From Clostridia bacterium (GTDB lineage: Bacteria > Bacillota > Clostridia > Oscillospirales > CAG-272), in the NCBI GenBank assembly GCA_017465885.1, contig JAFTVG010000027.1:52799-116798 (forward strand): 64,000 nt of DNA, given 5' to 3'. Below are positions 35,905 to 50,530 of this stretch, piece after piece (within the stretch, counting starts at the first letter, position 1; every line of letters begins with the position of its first letter). Position numbers and translations under genes: made by a program. Below the pieces are notes generated by a model. That model was not told where the DNA came from and ran no database searches. It saw only the letters and a program-made list of their open reading frames with translations.

Positions 35905-36312
35905 AAAATCCCGTTGCCCTTGGCGTGATACTCTTAACGGAGTATCACGCCGGTTCTATTCGCCTCTCGGCGAGTTCTATTGCTTCGCAGTGATATTCGG
36001 CTTACGCCGAGTGATATTCGCGGCTCACGCAGTGAGCATCGCGAGCTTTCAGGGCGAATAGAATATCACTGTGAGGCGTAGCCGAACAATATCACTGCCC
36101 GCAAGGGCAATATCACTCTTTGCGAAAGCAAAGAATATCACTCATAGACAGCAGAAAAAGAGAGAGTCTTACGGAATTTTGCTTCCGAAGCACTCTCTCT
36201 TCTGTTTTTATTGCAAGTTTCGCATTTGTTTTACAAATGCATCGGGCTGCGCCCATACCCCTTATAAAACTTCTCCGATAAGGACATCACCCATTTTGGG
36301 CAACGGGTGTGT
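35905..36312. repeat. nested inverted-repeat / multi-hairpin intergenic element
   Basis: A 12-bp perfect hairpin, GGCGTGATACTC/GAGTATCACGCC, lies at 35922-35951. AGTGATATT occurs at 35989 and 36010, with a degenerate copy at 36031. Its complement AATATCACT occurs at 36062, 36088, 36109 and 36134. Short GC hairpins lie between copies. TTCTATTCGCC (35955) pairs with GGCGAATAGAA (36053). The outer inverted repeat is CCCGTTGCCC (35910) and GGGCAACGGG (36299). Confidence 0.8.
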
Positions 36313-38943: not shown

Positions 38944-40581
<1,638 letters not shown>

Positions 40582-41008: not shown

Positions 41009-42001
41009 TTACATATACATTCCGTAACCCAAGCCGTTTGCCTGCTCGTATTCTTCTTTGGTACAGTAGCAAACGAATGCTTGAGGTGATATCTTGCGTC
41101 CGAGTATTTCTTCGAGACGCTCTTTTTCTTCCCAGTCCATTTCGGTAAGCTGTCTTGGCGTGTAGGCTTCTCTTGGCGGTACGGCAGATAGAACGTCGCC
41201 GATCATTCGGATCAGTCCCGTTGTTACCGTCACATTCATATCCTCATCGTGTTCGGGTGTTTTGTAGCTTCGGTACATCTCAGCAAGCGCTCCGTTACAA
41301 CCGCCCATCGCAAAGTAAAGCTCGATATTGGATTTGAGAAACCGCTCATCGAAGAGCTTGTTGTCACGGCAGGTATATCCTTCGGGTGTGGTGAAGGTCA
41401 TATACTTGTAATCCGAATACCACTTGACGCTGTATCCGTGTCGCTCCATACATTCGATGAAAGCCTCGGGTGTGGGACTGCATTCAAGCGCCCAATCAAG
41501 AAAGGCACACAGACGCTTTTTCCATTTGGGATATCTTCCGTAGGTGCATTTCTCTTCGGTAACCGAGAGACCGCGCTCACGGCACAGCTTGTTGGAGTAC
41601 TCCTTTATCTTCAGCATATCGTCTCTTGACTGATGAAACTTCTTTCCGTTTTCAAAGTTCACCGAATTGAAAACGATGTGATTGTGAATATGCGCCTCGT
41701 TGATGTGCGTTGAAACCACCGCCTGATAACCGCCGAAGTACATGGCAAGCTCCATTCCGATCTCGTGGGCAAGCTCAGGTGTCACGTTTTCTTCGGGAGC
41801 GAAGGACTGTATCACATGATAGTACTGTCTGCCGTCCTCCTTTCCGAAGCGCTCTTTGACAAACAGAAACTCATCGTGTGCAGACTCAGGCGCGCAGTTG
41901 ACACCGTCGATCAAATCTCGGTCGGTTGCTTCTGGTCGTGTGATATACGGAAAGATATTGTTCATCGGACAGCTCGAGGTAATGAATTTAACGATTGCCA
42001 T
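41009..42001 (-). CDS. relaxase/mobilisation nuclease (MobA/VirD2 family)
   Basis: 330 aa. N-terminal relaxase fold with the histidine triad HINEAHIHNHIVFNSVN. It overlaps the upstream mobC. Confidence 0.88.
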   Translation of the reverse strand: MAIVKFITSSCPMNNIFPYITRPEATDRDLIDGVNCAPESAHDEFLFVKERFGKEDGRQYYHVIQSFAPEENVTPELAHEIGMELAMYFGGYQAVVSTHINEAHIHNHIVFNSVNFENGKKFHQSRDDMLKIKEYSNKLCRERGLSVTEEKCTYGRYPKWKKRLCAFLDWALECSPTPEAFIECMERHGYSVKWYSDYKYMTFTTPEGYTCRDNKLFDERFLKSNIELYFAMGGCNGALAEMYRSYKTPEHDEDMNVTVTTGLIRMIGDVLSAVPPREAYTPRQLTEMDWEEKERLEEILGRKISPQAFVCYCTKEEYEQANGLGYGMYM

Positions 42002-42282
42002 ATCTTTTTCAGCTCCTCTCTTGTTTCGTTCAGGTCTACGGCGGGGATCATTCCGGCGTTAACGGCTCGGGTGATCTGATTGAGATTGTTACCGATACGC
42101 CGCAGTTCGTCGGCAAGCTCGTCCACGCCGTTGATGATAACGATGGGTTTATCCAGCGCCACATCACGAAGATAACGGCTAACGGTTCGGTAGGACGAAA
42201 GCGCTTTGTATTCGATCTGCTCTCGTTCTTCGGGCGAGACTCTCGTTCTGAGGATCTCGGTCTTGGGTTGTTTTGATTTCAT
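41962..42282 (-). CDS. mobC: plasmid mobilization relaxosome protein MobC
   Basis: The start is trimmed to ATG 42282 (MKSKQPKTE..., RBS AGGAGG). It has the hallmark ELRRIGNNLNQITRAVN and an RHH-like RVSPEEREQIEYKA. Confidence 0.88.
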   Translation of the reverse strand: MKSKQPKTEILRTRVSPEEREQIEYKALSSYRTVSRYLRDVALDKPIVIINGVDELADELRRIGNNLNQITRAVNAGMIPAVDLNETREELKKIWQSLNSLPRAVR

Positions 42283-42304
42283 AATAATTGAACCTCCTGT
42301 AATA

Positions 42305-42417
42305 GTGATATATCTCGCAAGCGAGATGTGATATGTTGCCTTGTGGCAACGTGATATAACGGCACAAGTGCCGCCATGATATTTCATTTGCAAGCAAATG
42401 AAGTTGCGCCTTCGGCG
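42305..42417 (+). other. motif-plus-hairpin array ending in a candidate oriT (IR + MOBQ-like nic core)
   Basis: GTGATAT occurs at 42305, 42328 and 42351 (23-nt period), and ATGATAT at 42376. Each copy is followed by a different perfect hairpin: ATCTCGC-AA-GCGAGAT, GTTGCC-TTGT-GGCAAC, CGGCAC-AA-GTGCCG, TTCATTTGC-AA-GCAAATGAA. GTTGCGCCTT (42403-42412) follows directly and resembles the AAGTGCGCCCT nic core. Confidence 0.55.
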
Positions 42418-42512
42418 TAGGGGTATGGGCATAGCCCGATGCCTTTGCCGGCTTGTCGTGGCACAAAGGCGAAACTCGCAATAAATGCCGACTGCATTAA
42501 AATGCTGTCGGC

Positions 42513-43595
42513 TTACCGAATGACAGAACCGTCAGTGACGCAAGGAACGCAAGGGTCGCAAGATTTGGCACTGCCGTTTTCTGCGTCACTTACGGCACTT
42601 GCGTCACTAAACGGAAGAACGTATCTAACTTCGAGAATTCTCTCGCCGTTGCTGCGGTGGCTGAGGAAATACACGCCGTGTTCTTCAAGGGTGTATCTCC
42701 ATTTGTTCATCTGCTGCTTGAGTGCCTTGGCAGATATCTGCTCTCCCGAGAAAGAACAATACCTTTCGGTAAACTCCGTATTACTTCCGACGAAGGAATT
42801 GATACTCTGAACAAAAGAAATCAGCTTGTCCATCTCGCTGGGAAGGAGCAATCTTGGATCGTCAAGGCTATCCGAGACACGCTCCCAAGTATGCGTGTCT
42901 TTTGAGAAGCGGATCTCAAGTTCGCGGTATTCAATATCCCGTCCCGTTGCAACGAGCGTGGCATTATCCTGGCTGCGCTTGCTCTTGTCAAGCACGAACA
43001 CCGCATCCACCGCGCCGCTGATGCCCGTTGTGCCGGACAGCTTGTTCAGCGGATCGCTGTCACCTTGCTTGCGAAGATGATGCACAAGCAGAAGCGTGAT
43101 GTTCAGCCCATCGGCAAGTGCTTTCAGTTTACGAAGCTCATCGTAGTCGTTGGCGTATGAGGTGTCTGCGGCGTAGCTTCGTATCACCTGAAAGGTATCA
43201 ATGGCAATGAATACCGTATCGGGATTCTCTTTTACGAATGAACGGATATCATCGCAAAGACCTTCGGCGAGCGTATGCGCCGTGGTTGCGAAGTACACCT
43301 CCTTGGGAACTTCATCGGTGATACTGTTCAGCCGTTCCTGCACACGGCGGAGCGTATCCTCGAGGCAGAGATACAACACCGATCCTTTGTGCGTTTGCAG
43401 ATTCCAGATCGGCTCTCCCTTTGCGATGCGAACGCACAGGTCAAGCACGAGCCACGATTTCCCGATCTTCGGTGCACCGCCGAGGATGCAGATCCCTTGC
43501 GGTATTAGCGTGTCGACACAAAACTTGGTCGGGACAAGTCTCATGTCCATGAGTGTTTCACCGTCTATGACGGTGAGTTTGTTTTTGTCTTTCAT
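42513..43595 (-). CDS. RepA-like AAA ATPase (AAA_25 / DnaB-like P-loop)
   Basis: The start is trimmed to ATG 43595 (MKDKNKLTV..., RBS AAAGGAG). Walker A GGAPKIGKSW, Walker B-like VFIAIDTF, and LLLVHHLRKQG, typical of the RepA/AAA_25 proteins of mobile elements. Confidence 0.8.
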   Translation of the reverse strand: MKDKNKLTVIDGETLMDMRLVPTKFCVDTLIPQGICILGGAPKIGKSWLVLDLCVRIAKGEPIWNLQTHKGSVLYLCLEDTLRRVQERLNSITDEVPKEVYFATTAHTLAEGLCDDIRSFVKENPDTVFIAIDTFQVIRSYAADTSYANDYDELRKLKALADGLNITLLLVHHLRKQGDSDPLNKLSGTTGISGAVDAVFVLDKSKRSQDNATLVATGRDIEYRELEIRFSKDTHTWERVSDSLDDPRLLLPSEMDKLISFVQSINSFVGSNTEFTERYCSFSGEQISAKALKQQMNKWRYTLEEHGVYFLSHRSNGERILEVRYVLPFSDASAVSDAENGSAKSCDPCVPCVTDGSVIR

Positions 43596-43870
43596 TGAAG
43601 ACTCCTTTCCGGGCTTAGCCCAAATATTTTTTGCAAGAGAAAAAGCTCCCGCCGATGTTGGCGAGAGCAATTTGACTTGCGGAGAGTTTCCTCTCTATTA
43701 CATACCCGACATGAAAGTGCCCAAAATGTTCCTGAGAGCAAAAAAATTTCCAAAAAAATCCCCTTGAAGTTTTTATGCATCAAAGGGATAGTTGTGAATT
43801 AGTTTATTCTGTCTTATTAAAATTATAATCTACGAAAACGCCGCCCGCAAAACACAGGCGGCATAAGGGA

Positions 43871-44782
43871 TTATTTTACTTTCTCTATCGGCATCCAAAT
43901 CTGAACGTTACGTTCTGCCTTCGGTAGCCAATGATAGACTGCAAGTTCAGGGGCGTTTTTGAGTTGGAAACCCATTTCCGGCATCCACTCAGTTAGAATC
44001 TGAATCCTCAAATTCAGCAGATCAAAATAATCACAAATGGGGCTTTTGACATCGTTAGTTTCAAAAACAACATAAGTAGTTTCAGGGATAACAATGTTTT
44101 CCAAACCCAAGTCTTCAACAAAATCAACGCCGGTAACGTCTTTGTTATAAAGATTATCTCTTTCCCATCCATCTAACAGATGGCAGTAATAATAGTCATA
44201 ACCTTCATCTGTGATATTGGTGATAACGCAATGTGCATCAATGTTTCGTGATGCGCCACGAAGGAACCACTGTTTTCCTCGCGTCGTCACAAAAAGTTGT
44301 TCCTCCTGACACTCTCTGTCCTTGCCATAGGGTACACCGGTGAAATGAGCTTTATATCCAGTCAAAATCATTTCCGGCTTCTTTTCAATTCTGTAATTCA
44401 TAGGTTTACCGCCTTCCAAAGAAAATTTCAGTACAAGACGGGAATAGGATTTCAGCATACTACCGTTATTTCGAGCCTGCGACGGCAATATACCGTGGAA
44501 CTTCTGGAATGCTTTTGCAAAGCTGTCCGGACTTTCATAGCCGTACTTCAGCGCAACATCAATAACCTTTGCATCACTTGAGGCCAACTCCGTACCGGCA
44601 AGCGACAGCCTGCGATTCCGAATATACTCGCCGATGGTGAAACCGCAAAGAATACTAAACACACGTTGGAAGTGATAGCTTGATGAAAAGCTCTGCGCTG
44701 CGACCATCTCGTAATCAATCGTTTCCGTCAGATTATCTTCGATATAGTCGATAGCTTTTTGCAATCCAATAATCCAGTCCAT
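43871..44782 (-). CDS. AraC-family regulator with GyrI-like effector-binding domain
   Basis: The start is trimmed to ATG 44782 (MDWIIGLQKAIDYIEDNL, RBS AAGGAGGGA). HTH_18 region SSSYHFQRVFSILCGFTIGEYIRNRRL...YGYESPDSFAKAFQKFHG. The ~150-aa C-terminus is GyrI-like. Confidence 0.85.
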   Translation of the reverse strand: MDWIIGLQKAIDYIEDNLTETIDYEMVAAQSFSSSYHFQRVFSILCGFTIGEYIRNRRLSLAGTELASSDAKVIDVALKYGYESPDSFAKAFQKFHGILPSQARNNGSMLKSYSRLVLKFSLEGGKPMNYRIEKKPEMILTGYKAHFTGVPYGKDRECQEEQLFVTTRGKQWFLRGASRNIDAHCVITNITDEGYDYYYCHLLDGWERDNLYNKDVTGVDFVEDLGLENIVIPETTYVVFETNDVKSPICDYFDLLNLRIQILTEWMPEMGFQLKNAPELAVYHWLPKAERNVQIWMPIEKVK

Positions 44783-44863
44783 ATTATCCCTCCTTGTCTG
44801 CCAATATTCTATCAAAAGGCGAATTAAAAATCCCGATATTCCGTGCTGAGTATAATCGGGTTA

Positions 44864-45778
44864 TCATGACTTCAAGAACGCTATGCGCTTTTCTTCGATC
44901 TTCTTCAAATGTTTGCCGACGGCACTGTGCGTTTTGAATCCGAGACGCTCGGCAATCTGCTTCTGCGTGTATCCGTTTGCCTTTAACTTGAAGATTTTGA
45001 CATCGGTCTCGTCACCGAGAAAGGCATAGAATTCTTTGATGGTTTCCACCATTTCAAGATGTGCCTGTGGGTCTTCGTCTGAGAACTCTGTTGCTAACTC
45101 AGGAGTTTTATGCTCGATGTCTTCCATTTGATCCAGCGATTCCAGTTCGCCAACTCTTGTACGTGTGTGATCCCATTGACGATTGAAATCCACCTTGTCA
45201 AAATTGGTGTTTGCGGTAGTTGCGAAATCCTCGTGCGCGCCGATCTCTTTCGATACGCCTAAAATCTCGGGAACGCTTTCCACTTGCATCAGCTTGTTCA
45301 TCATCACGGAAAGGAATAGATCCGCAAACTGATCGAACACAAGGGCGAACTCTGCTTCGGTCAATTCTTCAACTGTTTTGTTATGCGCCTTGGCATACTT
45401 TTCAAGCGCGGCGGTAATGTCCCCTTTTAAGGCGGTCAACATCGAATCTATGATGCGCTCACAAAGAGTTTCATCCGTGAGTATTTCCATCACGACACCG
45501 GCAACCAGATTTTCGTTTGCTTTTTCAAGACAGCGCACGGGAGCGTTGGAGGTGAAGTTGATGAGAGACCCTTTGCCTGTGAGCAGTTTCATCTGCTTAT
45601 TCCAAGACGAAAGGAAATGCTTTTTTGCTTTGATGTACACACGGTTCTGCTCGTCGGTAGCGACCATGGGATCGTATTTTGATACCTGCGTGCTGAAATC
45701 GTGGTCTCTGAAAAAGGCTTTCAGCTCCGCAATGGTCGGTGCGCTATCCTTCTCAAGCAACGTCACATCTGTTTTCAT
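44864..45778 (-). CDS. element-encoded protein with sigma-70 region-4-like C-terminal HTH
   Basis: 304 aa. The C-terminus LKANGYTQKQIAERLGFKTHSAVGKHLKKIEEKR is a region-4/LuxR-like HTH. The N-terminal 240 aa are unassigned. Confidence 0.65.
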   Translation of the reverse strand: MKTDVTLLEKDSAPTIAELKAFFRDHDFSTQVSKYDPMVATDEQNRVYIKAKKHFLSSWNKQMKLLTGKGSLINFTSNAPVRCLEKANENLVAGVVMEILTDETLCERIIDSMLTALKGDITAALEKYAKAHNKTVEELTEAEFALVFDQFADLFLSVMMNKLMQVESVPEILGVSKEIGAHEDFATTANTNFDKVDFNRQWDHTRTRVGELESLDQMEDIEHKTPELATEFSDEDPQAHLEMVETIKEFYAFLGDETDVKIFKLKANGYTQKQIAERLGFKTHSAVGKHLKKIEEKRIAFLKS

Positions 45779-45807
45779 CGATTCTCTCCTTTCACTATGG
45801 TGCTTAT

Positions 45808-45836
45808 ATTATATCATATTTTTACGAATTTTTCAA
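45808..45836 (-). promoter_or_regulatory. candidate promoter (TTGAAA-17-TGaTATAAT) of the sigma-like gene
   Basis: Minus strand: TTGAAA (complement of 45831-45836) - 17 nt - TATAAT (complement of 45808-45813) with an upstream TGA. An 18-nt core is identical to the promoter at 56835-56853. Confidence 0.65.
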
Positions 45837-45900
45837 GGAAGTAACTGTGAACAAAAAGAACAGAGGAACCGCACGTTTAGTGCAGTCCCTCCGTTTCTCC

Positions 45901-46428
45901 TTAGAAGTGTTTGCCTTCGCCCGGGCGGTCTTCGCCTTCGCCGATATAGTCTTCTACCGGTCGGTCATCGATCTCGGTCGGTGTGTCGTTCTCGAAGGGA
46001 TTCGGCTGACCGCCGATCTGAGGTTTGTATTCCGCAAGGCATTGATCCCCCTCGTCGATGCATTCGACGGTTTCTTCTTTCGATTCTGTCGTAACCGTAT
46101 CTTCGGTGATTTCGGTACATTGATCTGTCACGGTTTCTTGCGCCGTCGGTGTTTTTTCTTCATTGAACACCTCGTGTTCTTCGGTCACAACTTCGTTTTC
46201 GTTTACCGTTGTTTCCTTGATTTCAACGGCGGTTTCCGTTTTGCTTAATTCGCCTACAAACGCCGTTACTTCGCTTGTTTCGCTTGTTTCGGGTACTTGC
46301 TCCACCTGCACCGTTATCGCCGTTTGTGACGTTTTTTCGGCGGTCACGGGCGGCTCATCTGTAGCCTTTTGTGGTGTGGATAAGAGCGTCATAATTAGTG
46401 CGAGAATGATGGTGATTAACTTTTTCAT
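45901..46428 (-). CDS. secreted acidic Thr/Glu/Val-rich protein, function unknown
   Basis: The start is trimmed to ATG 46428 (MKKLITIILALIMTLLSTP signal). The mature part is low-complexity and rich in T, E and V. Confidence 0.6.
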   Translation of the reverse strand: MKKLITIILALIMTLLSTPQKATDEPPVTAEKTSQTAITVQVEQVPETSETSEVTAFVGELSKTETAVEIKETTVNENEVVTEEHEVFNEEKTPTAQETVTDQCTEITEDTVTTESKEETVECIDEGDQCLAEYKPQIGGQPNPFENDTPTEIDDRPVEDYIGEGEDRPGEGKHF

Positions 46429-46556
46429 ATATGTAATTCCTTTCCGAGCTCGTCTTTGCTGCTCAACACAAGAATAAACTGAAAAACAAATAAGTCCAGA
46501 GAGAATCGGCATGAAAATGAGGAATCGCACACATTTTGGTACGATTCCTCTGAATA

Positions 46557-46829
46557 TTATTCAATTTCTGAATTCATTACTTCGATGATGATCCTGGCTC
46601 CAAGCGTGAACCCTCTTACAAACGCCTCCCGCTCGGCGATGCCATACATCTCGTTGGTGCACTCGGTAAACTTTTCGAGAATCTCTATTTCCTCGTCATT
46701 CAGACGTTTCTTCAGATCTTCCTCGTGCCGCACGATGTAACCAAGCAGTTCAGAATACTTACTGCCTTTCTTGAAGTCCTTCTCACAAGGAGAGATGTTG
46801 CCGTACCATAATTCTTCAATGATGTTCAT
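46557..46829 (-). CDS. hypothetical 90-aa helical protein
   Basis: RBS GAAGGAGG. MNIIEELWYGNISPCEKDF... I have seen similar small proteins on Clostridial mobile elements, but I cannot name the family with confidence. Confidence 0.6.
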   Translation of the reverse strand: MNIIEELWYGNISPCEKDFKKGSKYSELLGYIVRHEEDLKKRLNDEEIEILEKFTECTNEMYGIAEREAFVRGFTLGARIIIEVMNSEIE

Positions 46830-46930
46830 TTCGCACCTCCTTCATAAAGAGAGCGGCTCCGTCTCGGGAAATCCCGATTCAGAACCGCTCTGTTTTTGTT
46901 TTTGCTATTTACTTTTCTTTTTCGTGCCAT
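46826..46930 (-). CDS. possible 34-aa highly basic peptide
   Basis: Absent from the track. ATG 46930 is preceded by AAGGAGG. It encodes MARKRKVNSKNKNRAVLNRDFPRRSRSLYEGGAK. Its TGA overlaps the downstream ATG (ATGA). Confidence 0.4.
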   Translation of the reverse strand: MARKRKVNSKNKNRAVLNRDFPRRSRSLYEGGAK

Positions 46931-47002
46931 ATGTACTACCTCCTTTTCTTGGTAGCACACACAATATCACAGAAAGGGGTGGAAGGCCAGAGAGAATAGC
47001 GA

Positions 47003-47662
47003 TTATTTTTTATTCTTTTTACCGCGTTTTTGATAGTCCGCGTTGATTTTGTCGCCCCAATCCGCGCCAAGCGGTGCACTTGCTCTGACATTGCAGACTG
47101 CTTTCGCGACCGATTCATACAGAATCTGCGTTCCTTCTTCGTCGGCATTGTAGTTTACGGCTCTATCCTTGCTGATGCCGTAACGCGCGGCTGTTTCAAC
47201 CGCATCAATGTTCGCTCCGATGAACAAGAACTCCCATCCGTACTTTTCCTTTTGACGCTCGATCATCTTCTTAACCTGCTCACTTGTGTAACGGTGGCTG
47301 GCGTTTTCCTGCCCATCGGTTGTGATGACAAACATCGTATGCTCCGGCACATCCTCGTTACGAGCGTATTTGTGAATGTTTCCGATGTGATGAATTGCAC
47401 CGCCGATGGCATCAATCAGAGCCGTGCAACCGCGAACAGTATAGTCCTTGTCGGTCATCTTTGGGATGTCACCGAGCTTCACGCGGTCGTGTAACACCTC
47501 GCTCTCGTCATCGAAAAGCACGGTGGAAACGTAGCAGCCTCCGTCTTGCTTCTTCTGCTTTTCAATCATCGAGTTAAAGCCACCGATGGTGTCGCTCTCG
47601 AGTCCTGCCATAGAGCCGCTTCTGTCCAAAATAAATACGAGTTCAGTAATGTTGTTTTTCAT
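47003..47662 (-). CDS. von Willebrand factor type A (vWA) domain protein
   Basis: The start is trimmed to ATG 47662 (MKNNITELVFILDRSGSMAG). The DxSxS MIDAS motif is present. 219 aa. Confidence 0.8.
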   Translation of the reverse strand: MKNNITELVFILDRSGSMAGLESDTIGGFNSMIEKQKKQDGGCYVSTVLFDDESEVLHDRVKLGDIPKMTDKDYTVRGCTALIDAIGGAIHHIGNIHKYARNEDVPEHTMFVITTDGQENASHRYTSEQVKKMIERQKEKYGWEFLFIGANIDAVETAARYGISKDRAVNYNADEEGTQILYESVAKAVCNVRASAPLGADWGDKINADYQKRGKKNKK

Positions 47663-47741
47663 AATTAAAAACCTCTCTTTCATTTGATGTCTATATTGTA
47701 CATCAATAAAAGAGAGGTTGGGTCGCATGTCAAGCGACAAA

Positions 47742-48098
47742 TTATTTACCTAATGTTGCACTCCACTCAGCTTCCTTAAAACCGACAAGCACGAAGCCGT
47801 CACCGATAAGCAACGGACGCTTTACGAGCATACCGTCGCTTGCGAGAAGCTTTAGCATCTCGTCATCGGTCATAGTGGGAAGCTTGTTTTTGAGGTCAAG
47901 AGATTTATAAAGCAGACCGCTTGTGTTAAAGAACTTTTTGAGGGGCAAACCGCTTTTCTTGTACCATTCTGTCAACTCATCAAGCGTGGGATTGTCGAGC
48001 TTTATATCTCTAAATTCATATTCGATTTTATTATCATCAAGCCACTTTTGCGCTTTTTGGCAAGTGGTACATTTTGGGTAGCAGATAAATTTTAACAT
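47742..48098 (-). CDS. ArsC/Spx-family (arsenate-reductase-like) thioredoxin-fold protein
   Basis: The start is trimmed to ATG 48098 (MLKFICYPKCTTCQKAQKWL, RBS AAGGAG). It has a CxxC near the N-terminus and LVKRPLL near the C-terminus, typical of the family. Confidence 0.75.
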   Translation of the reverse strand: MLKFICYPKCTTCQKAQKWLDDNKIEYEFRDIKLDNPTLDELTEWYKKSGLPLKKFFNTSGLLYKSLDLKNKLPTMTDDEMLKLLASDGMLVKRPLLIGDGFVLVGFKEAEWSATLGK

Positions 48099-48108
48099 AG
48101 TAATCTCC

Positions 48109-48411
48109 TTATTCGATGACTTCAATCAAAAAGCTTACCGGACGAAAACCATCGTTGCAAGAAATCATTGCTGATTTTGGGTTCTTCATCCATCCGTCAT
48201 AGAAATTCTCGCCACCGTGAGCAAGAGTCATTACAAACGGTGAAACGCTATCCCACGCACTGTCACAAAATCCATCGGGCTTTTGCCAACCTTCACAGAT
48301 AAAAATCTGACCTTCTTGTAAGTCACAGGCGTGTTTTATAGGATTTTCATACTTTTCAATCAAATCATCGTATCGTGCTTTTCGCATAACGGTTATCTTA
48401 ATTTTCTTCAT
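48109..48411 (-). CDS. TIGR04076-family protein (function unknown)
   Basis: 100 aa. KITVMRKARYDDLIEKYEN...CDLQEGQIFI...GFCDSAW...ISCNDGFRPVSF matches my recollection of the TIGR04076 family. Confidence 0.6.
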   Translation of the reverse strand: MKKIKITVMRKARYDDLIEKYENPIKHACDLQEGQIFICEGWQKPDGFCDSAWDSVSPFVMTLAHGGENFYDGWMKNPKSAMISCNDGFRPVSFLIEVIE

Positions 48412-48414
48412 ATC

Positions 48415-49440
48415 CTATGCCCCTAACAAACTCTGATCGAACGCAAACAGAGCCTCATTGATTTCAAAAATATTGTAGTTGCCCTTACTGATAAAGTATT
48501 CGATGATAATATCGAACTTATTGCTATGCGATAATGCGAACCCTGCCTTACGGAGCATATCCTCGGTTTCTGCGAGTGAAAGCTCCAAGGAAATCGCAAA
48601 CGCAAGCGCGGTGGGTTTGCTCGGCTTATAATGAATGTCACTACGGATTTTGGAGAACAGCTTGCGGTCAATGTTTGCTTTCTTGTAGCACTCGGCGTCG
48701 GTCATACCCTTTTCGTCAATCTTACGCAGAAGCATTTGAGAAAAGCTCTCGTCGATCTGCTTCAGCTTCGCATCAAGATCGTCCTCTGCCAGCATAGCCT
48801 TGCAATCGCATATTTCAAGAAAGTCGTCATCCGATTTCTTTCGTCTTGTGCGCGGAGCCATTGACGGTAGCGCGTTCATACGAATACGCTCACGGCTGTA
48901 ATCAGTATGCTCGTCCACATAGTTATCATCGATATATTCGGCAATGTCCGAGAACAGCTTCTCGCTGATCTTATAGGCAGCCTTGTCGAATATGACGATA
49001 TAAACGGTCATTTCGTTTTCAAGAAGAAAGTTGCTGATAACGTCGATAGCAACTTTCAAGGCTTGATCCTTGGGGTATCCGTACACACCCGATGAGATAA
49101 GCGGGAAAGCCACGGTTTCACAGTTGTTCTCCTTAGCAAGAGCCAAAGATTCGCGGTAGCAGGATTCAAGTAACGCCTTTTCTCCGTGCTTGCCGTCATT
49201 GTAGATAGGACCGACGGTATGTATTACATGCTTGGCCGGCAAATTATAACCGCCCGTAATCTTCGCTTTGCCCGTCTTGCAACCGCCAAGTGTTCTGCAT
49301 TCGGCGAGCAGTCCCAAACCCGCGGCGCGGTGAATCGCACCGTCAACACCTCCGCCGCCCAATAGCGACTCGTTGGCAGCATTGACAATGGCATCCACCT
49401 TCATTTTTGTTATATCGTTTCTTACTATTTCAAGCGGCAT
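48415..49440 (-). CDS. macro domain (ADP-ribose-binding/hydrolase) protein fused to a C-terminal HTH-like domain
   Basis: 341 aa. N-terminal MacroD/YmdB-type motifs [26 protein letters not shown] and [13 protein letters not shown]-terminal [23 protein letters not shown]...[15 protein letters not shown] resembles an XRE-like HTH. Confidence 0.85.
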
Positions 49441-49453
49441 TGGTGTTCCTCCT

Positions 49454-50530
49454 TTAATTCAATTTGCTCTCCTCTTTTATAACACTGTATTTTTCAGTTA
49501 TATACTGTGCGATACTATCGTAATCGCAAAATAGCGTTTTCTTGTTTATGCCAATCTTATCTAACTCTTTCAAAATGGCTGCTTTATTTTTAATGCGCAA
49601 TTCTATGTTTTGAAAATATAGGTGCTGTTTAGCTAACACTCTGAAGTTGTAGACGGGTTCAATATAAGTCAAATATCCTTGATATAGGAATAATCCCTGC
49701 TGATTTCTACCACGTTCAAATTTCATAATAGGCTGATATAACATATTGGGCAAAAATGTTATAGAGTGAATTGGTTCTGTATATGAGAGAGCTTTTTTGA
49801 AAAATACAAACTGCAAAGTAAGATAAAAATATAAGTCTTCATCGCAAATCTCTAACGGAAACTTCTTGACATCTTCAAAAGCATCTTGCAAATATGCAAT
49901 ACATTCCCATACATCGAACTTTTTGCGCTTTAGTTTTTTATAAAAGACTTGTTCTTTATCATCAAATGGCGAAGAAAAGTAAAACAGATAACTACTAATC
50001 AATTTTTCCATCAAAAATGAAAATGTATTGGGATGCTCTTTTTTGAACTGCTTAAATAACGGAACGAGCAACTCCAACTCGTTGATTGTATTAGCAAATA
50101 CGCACTCAATCAAATTTTCATTTGGGTATCTATGTATCAAATTAGTAACATCAATAGATTCGTCAGATCCTATATAAACGGCACCATCATCATCTTGCTT
50201 GCCGAGGCAAGCGAAATACAGAGCTGTTAATGGTGATGTTGATACATCTAAAAGATTTGTTGGCACTCCGTGATGCTGGGCAAAAGCAATAAAGTCTATC
50301 TTATCTTCGTTGAGTTTGTGGGCGGTTTCCTTATAAAACTCATCAATCATCTTCATAAACGGATACGGCTCGTTTGAGTTCCACCTAAACTCATACGGTC
50401 TAAGTGCAGACGATTGTCTTGACGGGAAAACATCTCCCTCTCCACGATAATACGAAACATTTTCAAACTTGTTTATATATCGTATATACTTTGAAAGACT
50501 ATCTATTTCTATTGTCTTTGTTTTTAACAT
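49454..50530 (-). CDS. FRG domain-containing protein
   Basis: 358 aa. YYRGEGDVF supplies the (F/Y)RG motif. [26 protein letters not shown] matches the conserved core of the FRG domain as I recall it. Very AT-rich. Confidence 0.75.

Follow-up and report, generated by a model that had tools for sequence, protein, structure and literature searches.

What is a tandem series of short hairpins, joined by a conserved heptamer, doing between a mobilization gene and a putative origin of transfer? The question is raised by a 230-nt gap (42283–42512) that separates mobC from a RepA-like gene in a 64,000-nt stretch of Clostridia bacterium DNA (contig JAFTVG010000027.1, positions 52,799 to 116,798 of the forward strand), which we call the window and number from its first letter. 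The gap holds both the hairpin array and a conserved core, and the genes of this region all lie on the minus strand. An earlier note, made from the letters alone, had read the gap as an origin of transfer (oriT) with iteron-like units, a call that is right for the interval and wrong for the motif. We find that the array is in all likelihood a right-half copy of a hairpin/heptamer repeat family of the Gut-1 type (Rfam RF01706), carried as an optional accessory between the oriT core and mobC; it thus represents a known motif of no assigned function, here in a variant that scores below threshold and in a new context. As to function, the reading that we favor, at roughly one chance in three, is that the array would work as folded single-stranded DNA on the mobC-sense strand, as a module resembling the single-strand origins (sso) and single-strand initiation sites (ssi).

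The array occupies 42305–42417 and consists of five perfect hairpins separated by (G/A)TGATAT. On the plus strand the heptamers are GTGATAT at 42305, 42328 and 42351 and ATGATAT at 42376, with the spacing of 23, 23 and 25 nt that the earlier note had described; on the mobC-sense (minus) strand they read ATATCAC (42311–42305, 42334–42328 and 42357–42351) and ATATCAT (42382–42376). Between and beyond them lie hairpin D (42312–42327, with a 7-bp stem and an AA loop), hairpin C (42335–42350, 6-bp stem), hairpin B (42358–42375, with a 6-bp stem and a perfect stem-loop at 42360–42373) and hairpin A (42383–42402, 9-bp stem), which are mutually unrelated in sequence. All four do pair as the note had stated, but a fifth hairpin, hp0 (42407–42417), had been missed. 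It lies in a segment of linker and hairpin (42403–42417) and reads CGCC-TTC-GGCG on the plus strand, within GTTGCGCCTTCGGCG, and CGCC-GAA-GGCG, containing CCGAAGG, on the mobC-sense strand. Shuffling the window 100 times gave an expectation of 0.00 for the triple-heptamer pattern, which the window itself shows three times, once here and in two overlapping matches at 36063–36141, and the folding z-scores for 42300–42420 as DNA were −5.2 on the minus strand and −4.3 on the plus strand (−5.1 as DNA and −4.4 as RNA for the whole intergenic region). The array is confirmed as real and non-random. Nearest-neighbor DNA folding gave equal energies for both of its strands and therefore is unable to choose between them.

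We set the gap in the context of its relatives through the MobC protein, for which 624 homologues were found; a MobC profile gave 80 loci from species-representative genomes, all of them from Clostridia of the gut or rumen. A single core motif recurs in 77 of the 80 loci, and lies upstream of mobC wherever the mobC start can be placed. In the window it spans 42418–42485 and reads, on the mobC-sense (minus) strand, TTTATTGCGAGTTTCGCC TTTG...CAAAGGC ATC GGGC-TAT-GCCC ATACCCCTA, with an inverted repeat at 42441–42447 and 42464–42470 and a second hairpin at 42427–42437; its consensus on the same strand is TTTATTGC(G/C)AGTTTCGCCTTTGT(A/G)TTACG-(variable inner hairpin)-CAAAGGCA..GGGC-NNN-GCCC-A(N)ACCCCT. 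The hairpin and the ACCCCT block lie 3′ of the core inverted repeat on the minus strand. Because this core is located upstream of mobC and the relaxase gene, contains an inverted repeat and is invariant, we regard it, on sequence grounds, as the best oriT candidate of the mobC-relaxase module, and it is in this form that the interval holds the likely oriT. Like the MOBQ and MOBP origins that work with MobC/NikA accessory proteins (RSF1010/R1162, pC221 and R64), the gap is intergenic and upstream of mobC and the relaxase gene and has an inverted repeat flanked by a conserved block, these features belonging to the core and not to the array. It differs from them in that the core has no recognizable AAGTGCGCCCT or ATCCTG nic core, and a search of 72,556 plasmids with either the 2.7-kb module or the core alone gave only distant matches to relaxase coding sequence and no annotated oriT. 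In two loci of Ruminococcus sp. JL13D9 (L040 and L046) an insertion of ∼1.6 kb upstream of mobC, which we take from its look to be insertion-sequence-like, splits the second hairpin of the core between GGGCAAGGCCC and GCCCGCACCCC and probably inactivates that oriT.

The array itself is an occasional companion of this core. It was present in eight homologous loci (including L001, L002, L006, L049, L051, L052 and L059) plus the window copy, and absent from ∼69 of the 77 core-bearing loci. Its position is constant, between the core and the mobC ribosome-binding site, its orientation is the same in all nine mob loci, and in the array-bearing mob loci the heptamer, A(T/C)(A/T)TCA(C/T), is always found on the mobC-sense strand. 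Five loci (L003, L004, L005, L007 and L008) with a MobC 90–96% identical to that of the window lack it entirely, and L003, L004, L005 and L007 among them keep the same RepA-like 3′ end. In a neighbor-joining tree of MobC the array appears in three lineages (58–95% identity) that are interleaved with array-less relatives. Because relatives with so similar a MobC do without it, the array is, to judge from these comparisons, an optional accessory module, and neither a nic site nor a set of iterons. Where the array is present, hairpins at the same position (L051, L049/L052 and L059) are homologous, and their stems have changed on both sides without loss of pairing. Hairpin D has the stems ATCTCG/CGAGAT, ATCTTGC/GCAAGAT, ATCCCGC/GCGGGAT and GTCTTGC/GCAAGAC across homologues, and hairpin C the stems GTTGCC/GGCAAC, TTGTC/GACAA, GTTGC/GCAAC and TTTGC/GCAAA. 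The structure of the array hairpins is thus, on the sequence evidence, under selection, and the suggestion that structure is conserved while sequence is free is upheld. The homologue comparison that the earlier note had called for found the hairpin positions kept and the stems covarying in array-bearing loci, but most homologous elements lack the phased units on which its model was built.

That model took hairpin A and GTTGCGCC for an inverted repeat and nic site of the MOBQ type, and the phased units for iterons of the RepA-like protein. The location between a rep-like gene and mobC suits it, as do a superficial likeness of GTTGCGCC to AAGTGCGCC and the 23-nt spacing in this one copy, yet the GCGCC on which the nic assignment rested is the stem of hp0 and varies among homologues. 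In the array-bearing loci the equivalent site reads GTTGCGCC, GTTACGCC, GTTTCGCC, ATTACGCT or GTTATGAC, and the forms of the hp0 stem at the position of GTTGCGCC include ACGCC, TCGCC and ACGCT. A likeness to MOBQ nic sites found no counterpart, either as a AAGTGCGCCCT-type match or among plasmid oriTs, and the ∼69 core-keeping loci without any part of the array have a different conserved motif, the core. As iterons the units fare no better, since only 7 nt per unit are conserved, versus an expected ∼17–22 bp, and the 14–20 nt between are unrelated palindromes. The heptamer spacing tracks hairpin length rather than a fixed phase (23/23/25 nt here, 26/21/25 nt in a second array of the window and 21–26 nt across the family). 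A cognate initiator is difficult to reconcile with the absence of the array from close relatives that keep the RepA-like gene, and with the at least 120 arrays at chromosomal intergenic loci. We find this model scarcely credible.

An identity for the array was provided by Rfam, in which 42303–42387 matches Gut-1 on the plus strand, antisense to mobC, with 39.7 bits, below the gathering score of 50 (E-values of the Gut-1 matches in cmscan being about 1e-6 to 1e-8); the arrays of L049, L051 and L059 also fall below that score. Gut-1 comprises at least three short hairpins of free sequence split by the conserved heptamer GUGAAAU, comes from gut Clostridia and gut metagenomes, and was listed by Weinberg et al. 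(2010) as a probable non-coding RNA on covariation grounds; the published description is a single sentence and gives no function, bipartite layout or link to an oriT (PMC2864571). An inverted right half is already visible in the flanks of Weinberg's own alignment. Aligned to the model, the array shows the Gut-1 architecture of tandem free-sequence hairpins with a GUGAAAU-like heptamer, which takes the form GTGATAT here and GTGAAAT in L059.

A metagenome scan for the center of the element yielded at least 120 loci of a dispersed family. Its members measure ∼190 nt from the first heptamer, or ∼220 nt with a leading strong hairpin, and have the layout (strong hairpin) (C)AGTTATATTCGCC-loop-GGCGA (GTGATAT hp)x3 GTT..GGCGAATA(N)A (ATATCAC hp)x3 ATATCAC, where hp stands for a hairpin. 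The left halves of full elements score 53–76 bits, above the gathering score of Gut-1, and hairpins C and D of the array are recognizably homologous to right-half hairpins of two dispersed copies, L292 and L320. Since the left halves pass the Gut-1 score and these right halves share hairpins C and D, we assign the array with considerable confidence to the family as a right-half-only copy. Tandem free-sequence hairpins, the conserved heptamer, an origin in gut Clostridia and homology to above-threshold left halves therefore unite the array with Gut-1; it differs in the scores of the window copies (39.7, 42 and 49 bits against 50), in being a right half only, on the strand opposite the mobC mRNA and inside a mobilization module, and in pairing statistics that argue against RNA. 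Among the matches listed, the spacers between heptamers come in 326 distinct sequences, so that the hairpins differ while the linker is conserved. The dispersed copies are intergenic, occur several to a contig, have sharp boundaries and vary in unit number; full elements often extend as far as the −35 box of the promoter that follows, and the genes downstream are diverse. Two other ideas about the element were dropped: pairing of left-half GTGATAT with right-half ATATCAC is predicted by folding, but the heptamer variants show no position-by-position covariation, and a promoter inside the array or at the element center (TAnAAT) has no acceptable −35 box and did not appear in the promoter scan.

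A second, full bipartite element of the Gut-1 type was located in the same window, by pattern search and Rfam, at 35922–36141 on the plus strand. It has a strong hairpin (35922–35951), a left half of GTTCTAT/GTGATAT units (35953–36017), the center GGCGAATAGA and a right half with ATATCAC at 36063, 36089, 36110 and 36135, inverted with respect to the left half. Its two Gut-1 matches, of 49 bits (35951–36022, plus) and 42 bits (36084–36184, minus), are both below 50, and contig divergence points place the repeat boundaries at 35920 and 36142. A terminator-like hairpin (∼36152–36204) follows, and then an orphan mini-oriT (36205–36265, plus), which is a copy of the core without the inner hairpin and without mobC. 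This composite (35922–36265) sits between the gene of a 965-aa BspA-type leucine-rich repeat surface protein and the rpsR-ssb-rpsF operon. The combination of full element, hairpin and mini-oriT core recurs at an unrelated chromosomal locus, L287 (minus, about 1400–1760), and with the core inverted in L220 (about 2030–2330), making three of ∼127 full elements, the window's own included, that lie beside an orphan oriT core versus none expected by chance.

Given that Gut-1 has been classed as RNA, the pairing within the hairpins was compared between 238 distinct array hairpins and 277 unidirectional intrinsic-terminator hairpins from the same loci, with G·T and A·C pairs detected symmetrically. 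The terminators had 156 G·T and 65 A·C pairs among 2666 base pairs counted (p = 8e-10 for G·T against A·C), and the array hairpins had 13 and 18 among 1394 (p = 0.47), a difference between the sets that is significant (Fisher, p = 0.004), although the array counts come from related copies and hence are not fully independent. Non-Watson-Crick pairs made up 8.3% in terminators and 2.2% in the array (p = 3e-16), and triloops accounted for 15% and 41% of hairpins, respectively (p = 2e-11). The signature expected of RNA is seen in the terminators and is lacking from the array hairpins. The G·U asymmetry of the strong left-end hairpin was not used, as one subfamily dominates the result.

The loops also distinguish the strands. 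Read on the ATATCAC strand, they begin with G in 57% and end with A in 70% of cases, and mini-hairpin motifs are concentrated there (ATATCAC strand to opposite strand, GCGNAGC 28:0, GCGNNAGC 29:0, C-GNA-G 66:10 and CCGAAGG 11:0); in L059 the loops on this strand are GAA, GCAA, GAAA and GCA. Triloops of the d(GNA) type with a C-G closing pair are unusually stable in DNA (PMC3201870), and mini-hairpins are found at the priming site of phage G4 and at ssiA of RSF1010 (CCGAAGG), with poor binding of single-stranded DNA-binding protein (SSB) (PMC13037366). A precedent among the Firmicutes is sso1 of ICEBs1, an orientation-specific segment of ∼200 nt that contains three stem-loops, adjoins the relaxase gene and is needed for stable acquisition (PMC4595007). 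The array resembles such sso and ssi modules, among them ssiA and ssiB of RSF1010 and the complementary-strand origin of phage G4, in being ∼100–200 nt of non-coding DNA with several stem-loops, strand- or orientation-specific, adjoining the nick/relaxase module and present or absent like a cassette, as well as in its GCGAAAGC/CCGAAGG-type DNA mini-hairpins and the adjoining RepA-like (AAA_25) ATPase gene. It differs in having no sequence similarity to the ssoA/U/T/W motifs and in a periodicity of hairpin and heptamer that is undescribed for sso or ssi, and most of its relatives are chromosomal and bipartite, its sso-like role being a proposal.

The mechanism that we propose starts from the anatomy, the conservation pattern, the Gut-1 homology and the DNA-like pairing statistics, to which we add, as our own inference, the strand that is displaced and a protein that reads the heptamer. 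The mobC-sense strand would be displaced from the oriT, either during transfer or during rolling-circle replication of the excised element. Each palindrome in the displaced strand would then fold into a compact hairpin and keep SSB off, so that the heptamer between one hairpin and the next would stay exposed as a short single-stranded stretch. In tandem, these stretches could be where a single-strand-specific enzyme lands or initiates; a primase or an RNA polymerase, priming the synthesis of the complementary strand as at sso and ssi, would be the likeliest such enzyme. The model predicts a nick on the mobC-sense strand in the core, and an array that is active in one orientation only.

Several observations weigh against this proposal. 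The best-conserved block of the core, 42471–42485 (column conservation, 76 distinct sequences), lies 3′ of the inverted repeat on the plus strand, and a nick there would make the GTGATAT strand the transferred one. The sso motif CS-6 (TAGCG[TA]) is absent from both strands of 42283–42512. Outside hp0, which has the only GAA motif of the window copy, the loops are CTTG, CTTG, ACAA and CTTG, so that three of its five hairpins have the less diagnostic CTTG loop, and GNRA-type tetraloops are stable in RNA as well as in DNA. Most family members are chromosomal and lie just after terminators, with the upstream gene on the same strand in 48 of 63 cases, and a priming role leaves this orientation bias and the post-terminator position not obviously explained. 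The chromosomal bipartite copies are not yet accounted for by a single-strand model either; we can only speculate that two inverted halves might let the element serve a replication fork from either direction. Finally, mobC, the array and the core are joined in metatranscriptome contigs, which makes it probable that the array is transcribed as well.

The last of these points belongs equally to an account in which the array is an RNA element, as Rfam and Weinberg et al. class Gut-1 on covariation grounds. It would then be a Gut-1-type structured RNA in the leader of the mobC-relaxase transcript or between the repA and mobC cistrons, where it might make the mRNA more stable, insulate it, or offer a regulator its AUAUCAC linkers to bind. 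Transcription together with mobC is probable because the promoter scan found no sigma-70-like promoter between repA and mobC, the CUUG and GNRA loops would be stable in the RNA, and full elements are biased in orientation relative to the upstream gene. The contigs that join mobC, array and core are nevertheless unstranded Logan assemblies, possibly with carried-over DNA, RNA depth over the second element is inflated by paralogous copies, and no RNA runs were listed for a human-gut full element. Against an RNA there are also the lack of a G·U excess in either orientation, unlike the terminators of the same loci, and the 41% of triloops. The motif moreover occurs as back-to-back inverted halves, which would need opposite transcription, and full elements begin right after terminator hairpins and often stop at the −35 box of the next promoter. 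In the window, the strand that Rfam matches is antisense to mobC and the mobC Shine-Dalgarno sequence is not sequestered. We consider an RNA element unlikely on this evidence.

The heptamer itself suggests a different possibility, in which the DNA acts as a duplex. TATCAC(T/A) equals the heptad 5′-(T/A)ATCAC(T/A)-3′ of the omega operators and parS sites of pSM19035, which form direct and inverted arrays with a ribbon-helix-helix protein encoded next door (PMC4627068). The window array contains TATCACT, TATCACA and TATCACG, the full elements contain TATCACT, and MobC has a NikA-like ribbon-helix-helix domain. Between the last heptamer and the mobC Shine-Dalgarno sequence downstream of it there are 6 nt (7–12 nt in homologues), and looping out all of the palindromes would give contiguous TATCACA repeats. 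The heptamers could accordingly be bound by MobC, or by an omega-like protein of the host or a plasmid, for regulation of the mob operon or assembly of the relaxosome. Omega, however, needs contiguous heptads, and these are a variable 21–26 bp apart, split by palindromes of 14–20 nt whose covarying stems such an operator leaves unexplained. A MobC that is 90–96% identical works in elements without any heptamer, and members of the family are scattered across chromosomes at loci remote from mob genes. We give little credence to a duplex operator.

The dispersal of the family brings in the last alternative, namely that the array is a selfish or neutral repeat, the solo end of an element of the type of miniature inverted-repeat transposable elements (MITE) or repetitive extragenic palindromes (REP), which landed or recombined at a hairpin-rich site and brings the mobilizable element no benefit. 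At least 120 copies with sharp boundaries, several per contig and with variable unit number, are what such a repeat would leave, its two inverted halves look like abutted transposon ends with multiple binding sites, and mob modules that are nearly identical differ in whether they have it, while the same core-mobC spacer also takes up other, unrelated inserts. Set against this, position, orientation, homologous hairpins and pairing are retained by three MobC lineages with identities as low as 58%, no accompanying transposase was identified, and full elements recur beside orphan oriT cores more often than chance allows. A MITE-type insertion was rejected for the mobC loci, where we found neither a target-site duplication nor a clean empty site and where array-plus and array-minus alleles differ by substitution instead of a clean insertion. 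We judge a repeat without benefit to be improbable. REP and their mosaic arrangements (BIME) are clusters of short palindromes in alternating orientation, extragenic, mostly just after the 3′ ends of genes, many per genome and variable in unit number. The at least 120 dispersed intergenic loci with palindromic units in two inverted halves resemble them, but REP conserve the palindrome, whereas the present family conserves the 7-nt linker and leaves the palindromes free; no gene like those of the REP-associated tyrosine transposases (RAYT) was seen with it.

Additional observations concern the spacer in which the array resides. In metatranscriptome contigs of two runs (X21 and X24) an array-less allele has 143 nt of 42274–42418 replaced by 33 nt, TCAAAGCTAAAAAAGGAGAAGTAATTCTATGAA on the mobC strand; as it was found in the same samples as the array form, both coexist in one community. 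Elsewhere the spacer between core and mobC carries unrelated inserts, a long hairpin (CTTACCTTTTCTTTGCGGAAAGAAAAGGTAAG) and a structured insert of ∼120 nt (L024, L035, L063, L066, L069 and L071; L025 and L037), and is a hot spot for accessory modules. The mobC frame stays open through the array, giving an open reading frame (ORF) of 156 aa here (41962–42432, minus). As the array has no stop codon in this frame, gene callers extend MobC upstream through it, and the over-long MobC database entries P0002 (141 aa) and P0011 (156 aa) are probably artifacts of this kind.

Further observations relate to full elements of the family. In a scan of viral contigs for the triple heptamer, the only true array among the matches listed was L091, the others being ordinary tandem repeats, mostly from giant-virus bins. 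L091 (an IMG/VR contig, 1400–1560) has a full Gut-1 element between an α-L-fucosidase-like gene and phage head genes, by eye presumably those of a head-tail connector, capsid, ClpP protease and portal, and the element appears to lie at or near a prophage boundary. In ∼10% of the full elements sampled, the next gene after the right half encodes a recurrent protein of ∼118 aa (MSDSILRCKSKDFAKK...) and has its own promoter (L208, L219, L224, L227, L233, L256, L261, L278, L313 and L321); we take this protein to resemble the four-helix-bundle/23S rRNA intervening-sequence (Avd-like) family. Full elements also occur directly after tRNA genes (L210, L219, L313 and L213), and in L313 three tandem elements lie upstream of an S-adenosylmethionine riboswitch and metK.

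The gene neighborhood of the array is that of a mobilizable element. From the distal side, it includes a large serine recombinase gene (38944–40578, minus) and the gene of a 330-aa relaxase with a MobA/VirD2-like nuclease domain (41009–42001, minus; Pfam PF03432, E = 1.4e-39), for which a search of the PDB gave no sequence relative. The 106-aa MobC (41962–42282, minus) has a NikA-like ribbon-helix-helix N terminus followed by a MobC domain (Pfam PF21983, 5e-21, and PF05713, 6e-13), and its matches in the PDB are weak ones to NikA and PcfF, with nothing stronger. Its start codon is the ATG at 42282, with the Shine-Dalgarno sequence AGGAGG at 42293–42298. Upstream of the oriT core lies the gene of the RepA-like ATPase (42513–43670, minus), an AAA_25/DnaB-C-like protein (Pfam PF13481, 8.5e-22). 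Directly 3′ of it, inverted-repeat and folding analysis placed a terminator-like hairpin (42487–42512, minus), the U-rich tail of which enters the core; a strict terminator scan did not call this hairpin. Inside the 3′ end of the RepA-like gene, 42529–42595 contain a 21-nt inverted repeat (81% complementary) with GTGACGCA motifs, the protein tail encoded over this segment is repetitive, and the region is kept in L003–L007. Farther upstream (43871–50530, minus) follow, in order, an AraC/GyrI-like regulator, a 304-aa ORF with no Pfam match, a DUF6809 protein, a Macro-domain protein and an FRG-domain protein, the last two of which (48415–50530) may be cargo or defense genes.

Beyond this locus, it is possible, though we hold it doubtful, that Gut-1 at large is no RNA gene, that it forms half of a bipartite element whose DNA works in the single-stranded state, and that this element is tied in evolution and function to a family of conjugative transfer origins in gut Clostridia. 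The tie is suggested because half-copies lie between oriT and mobC, full copies are fused to orphan mini-oriTs and the left end, AGTTATATTCGCC, resembles AGTTTCGCC of the core. Tandem mini-hairpins would in such an element resist SSB and show the heptamer on the strand that runs 5′ to 3′ outward from the center. If true, this would make the element a new kind of signal for single-strand initiation or processing, or else the substrate on which a relaxase or some other nicking enzyme of the HUH type acts, in use both by mobile elements and at chromosomal sites. Gut-1, an orphan since 2009/2010, now has a transfer-origin context, a defined strand, a bipartite architecture and a statistical signature, and this context turns an unknown small RNA into a DNA-level hypothesis that can be tested. 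A candidate oriT core is now also defined for a widespread, uncharacterized MobC/relaxase family of mobilizable elements in gut and rumen Clostridia, a definition that is needed to predict mobilizable chromosomal islands, and the orphan mini-oriTs beside housekeeping genes suggest that chromosomal segments could be mobilized in trans.

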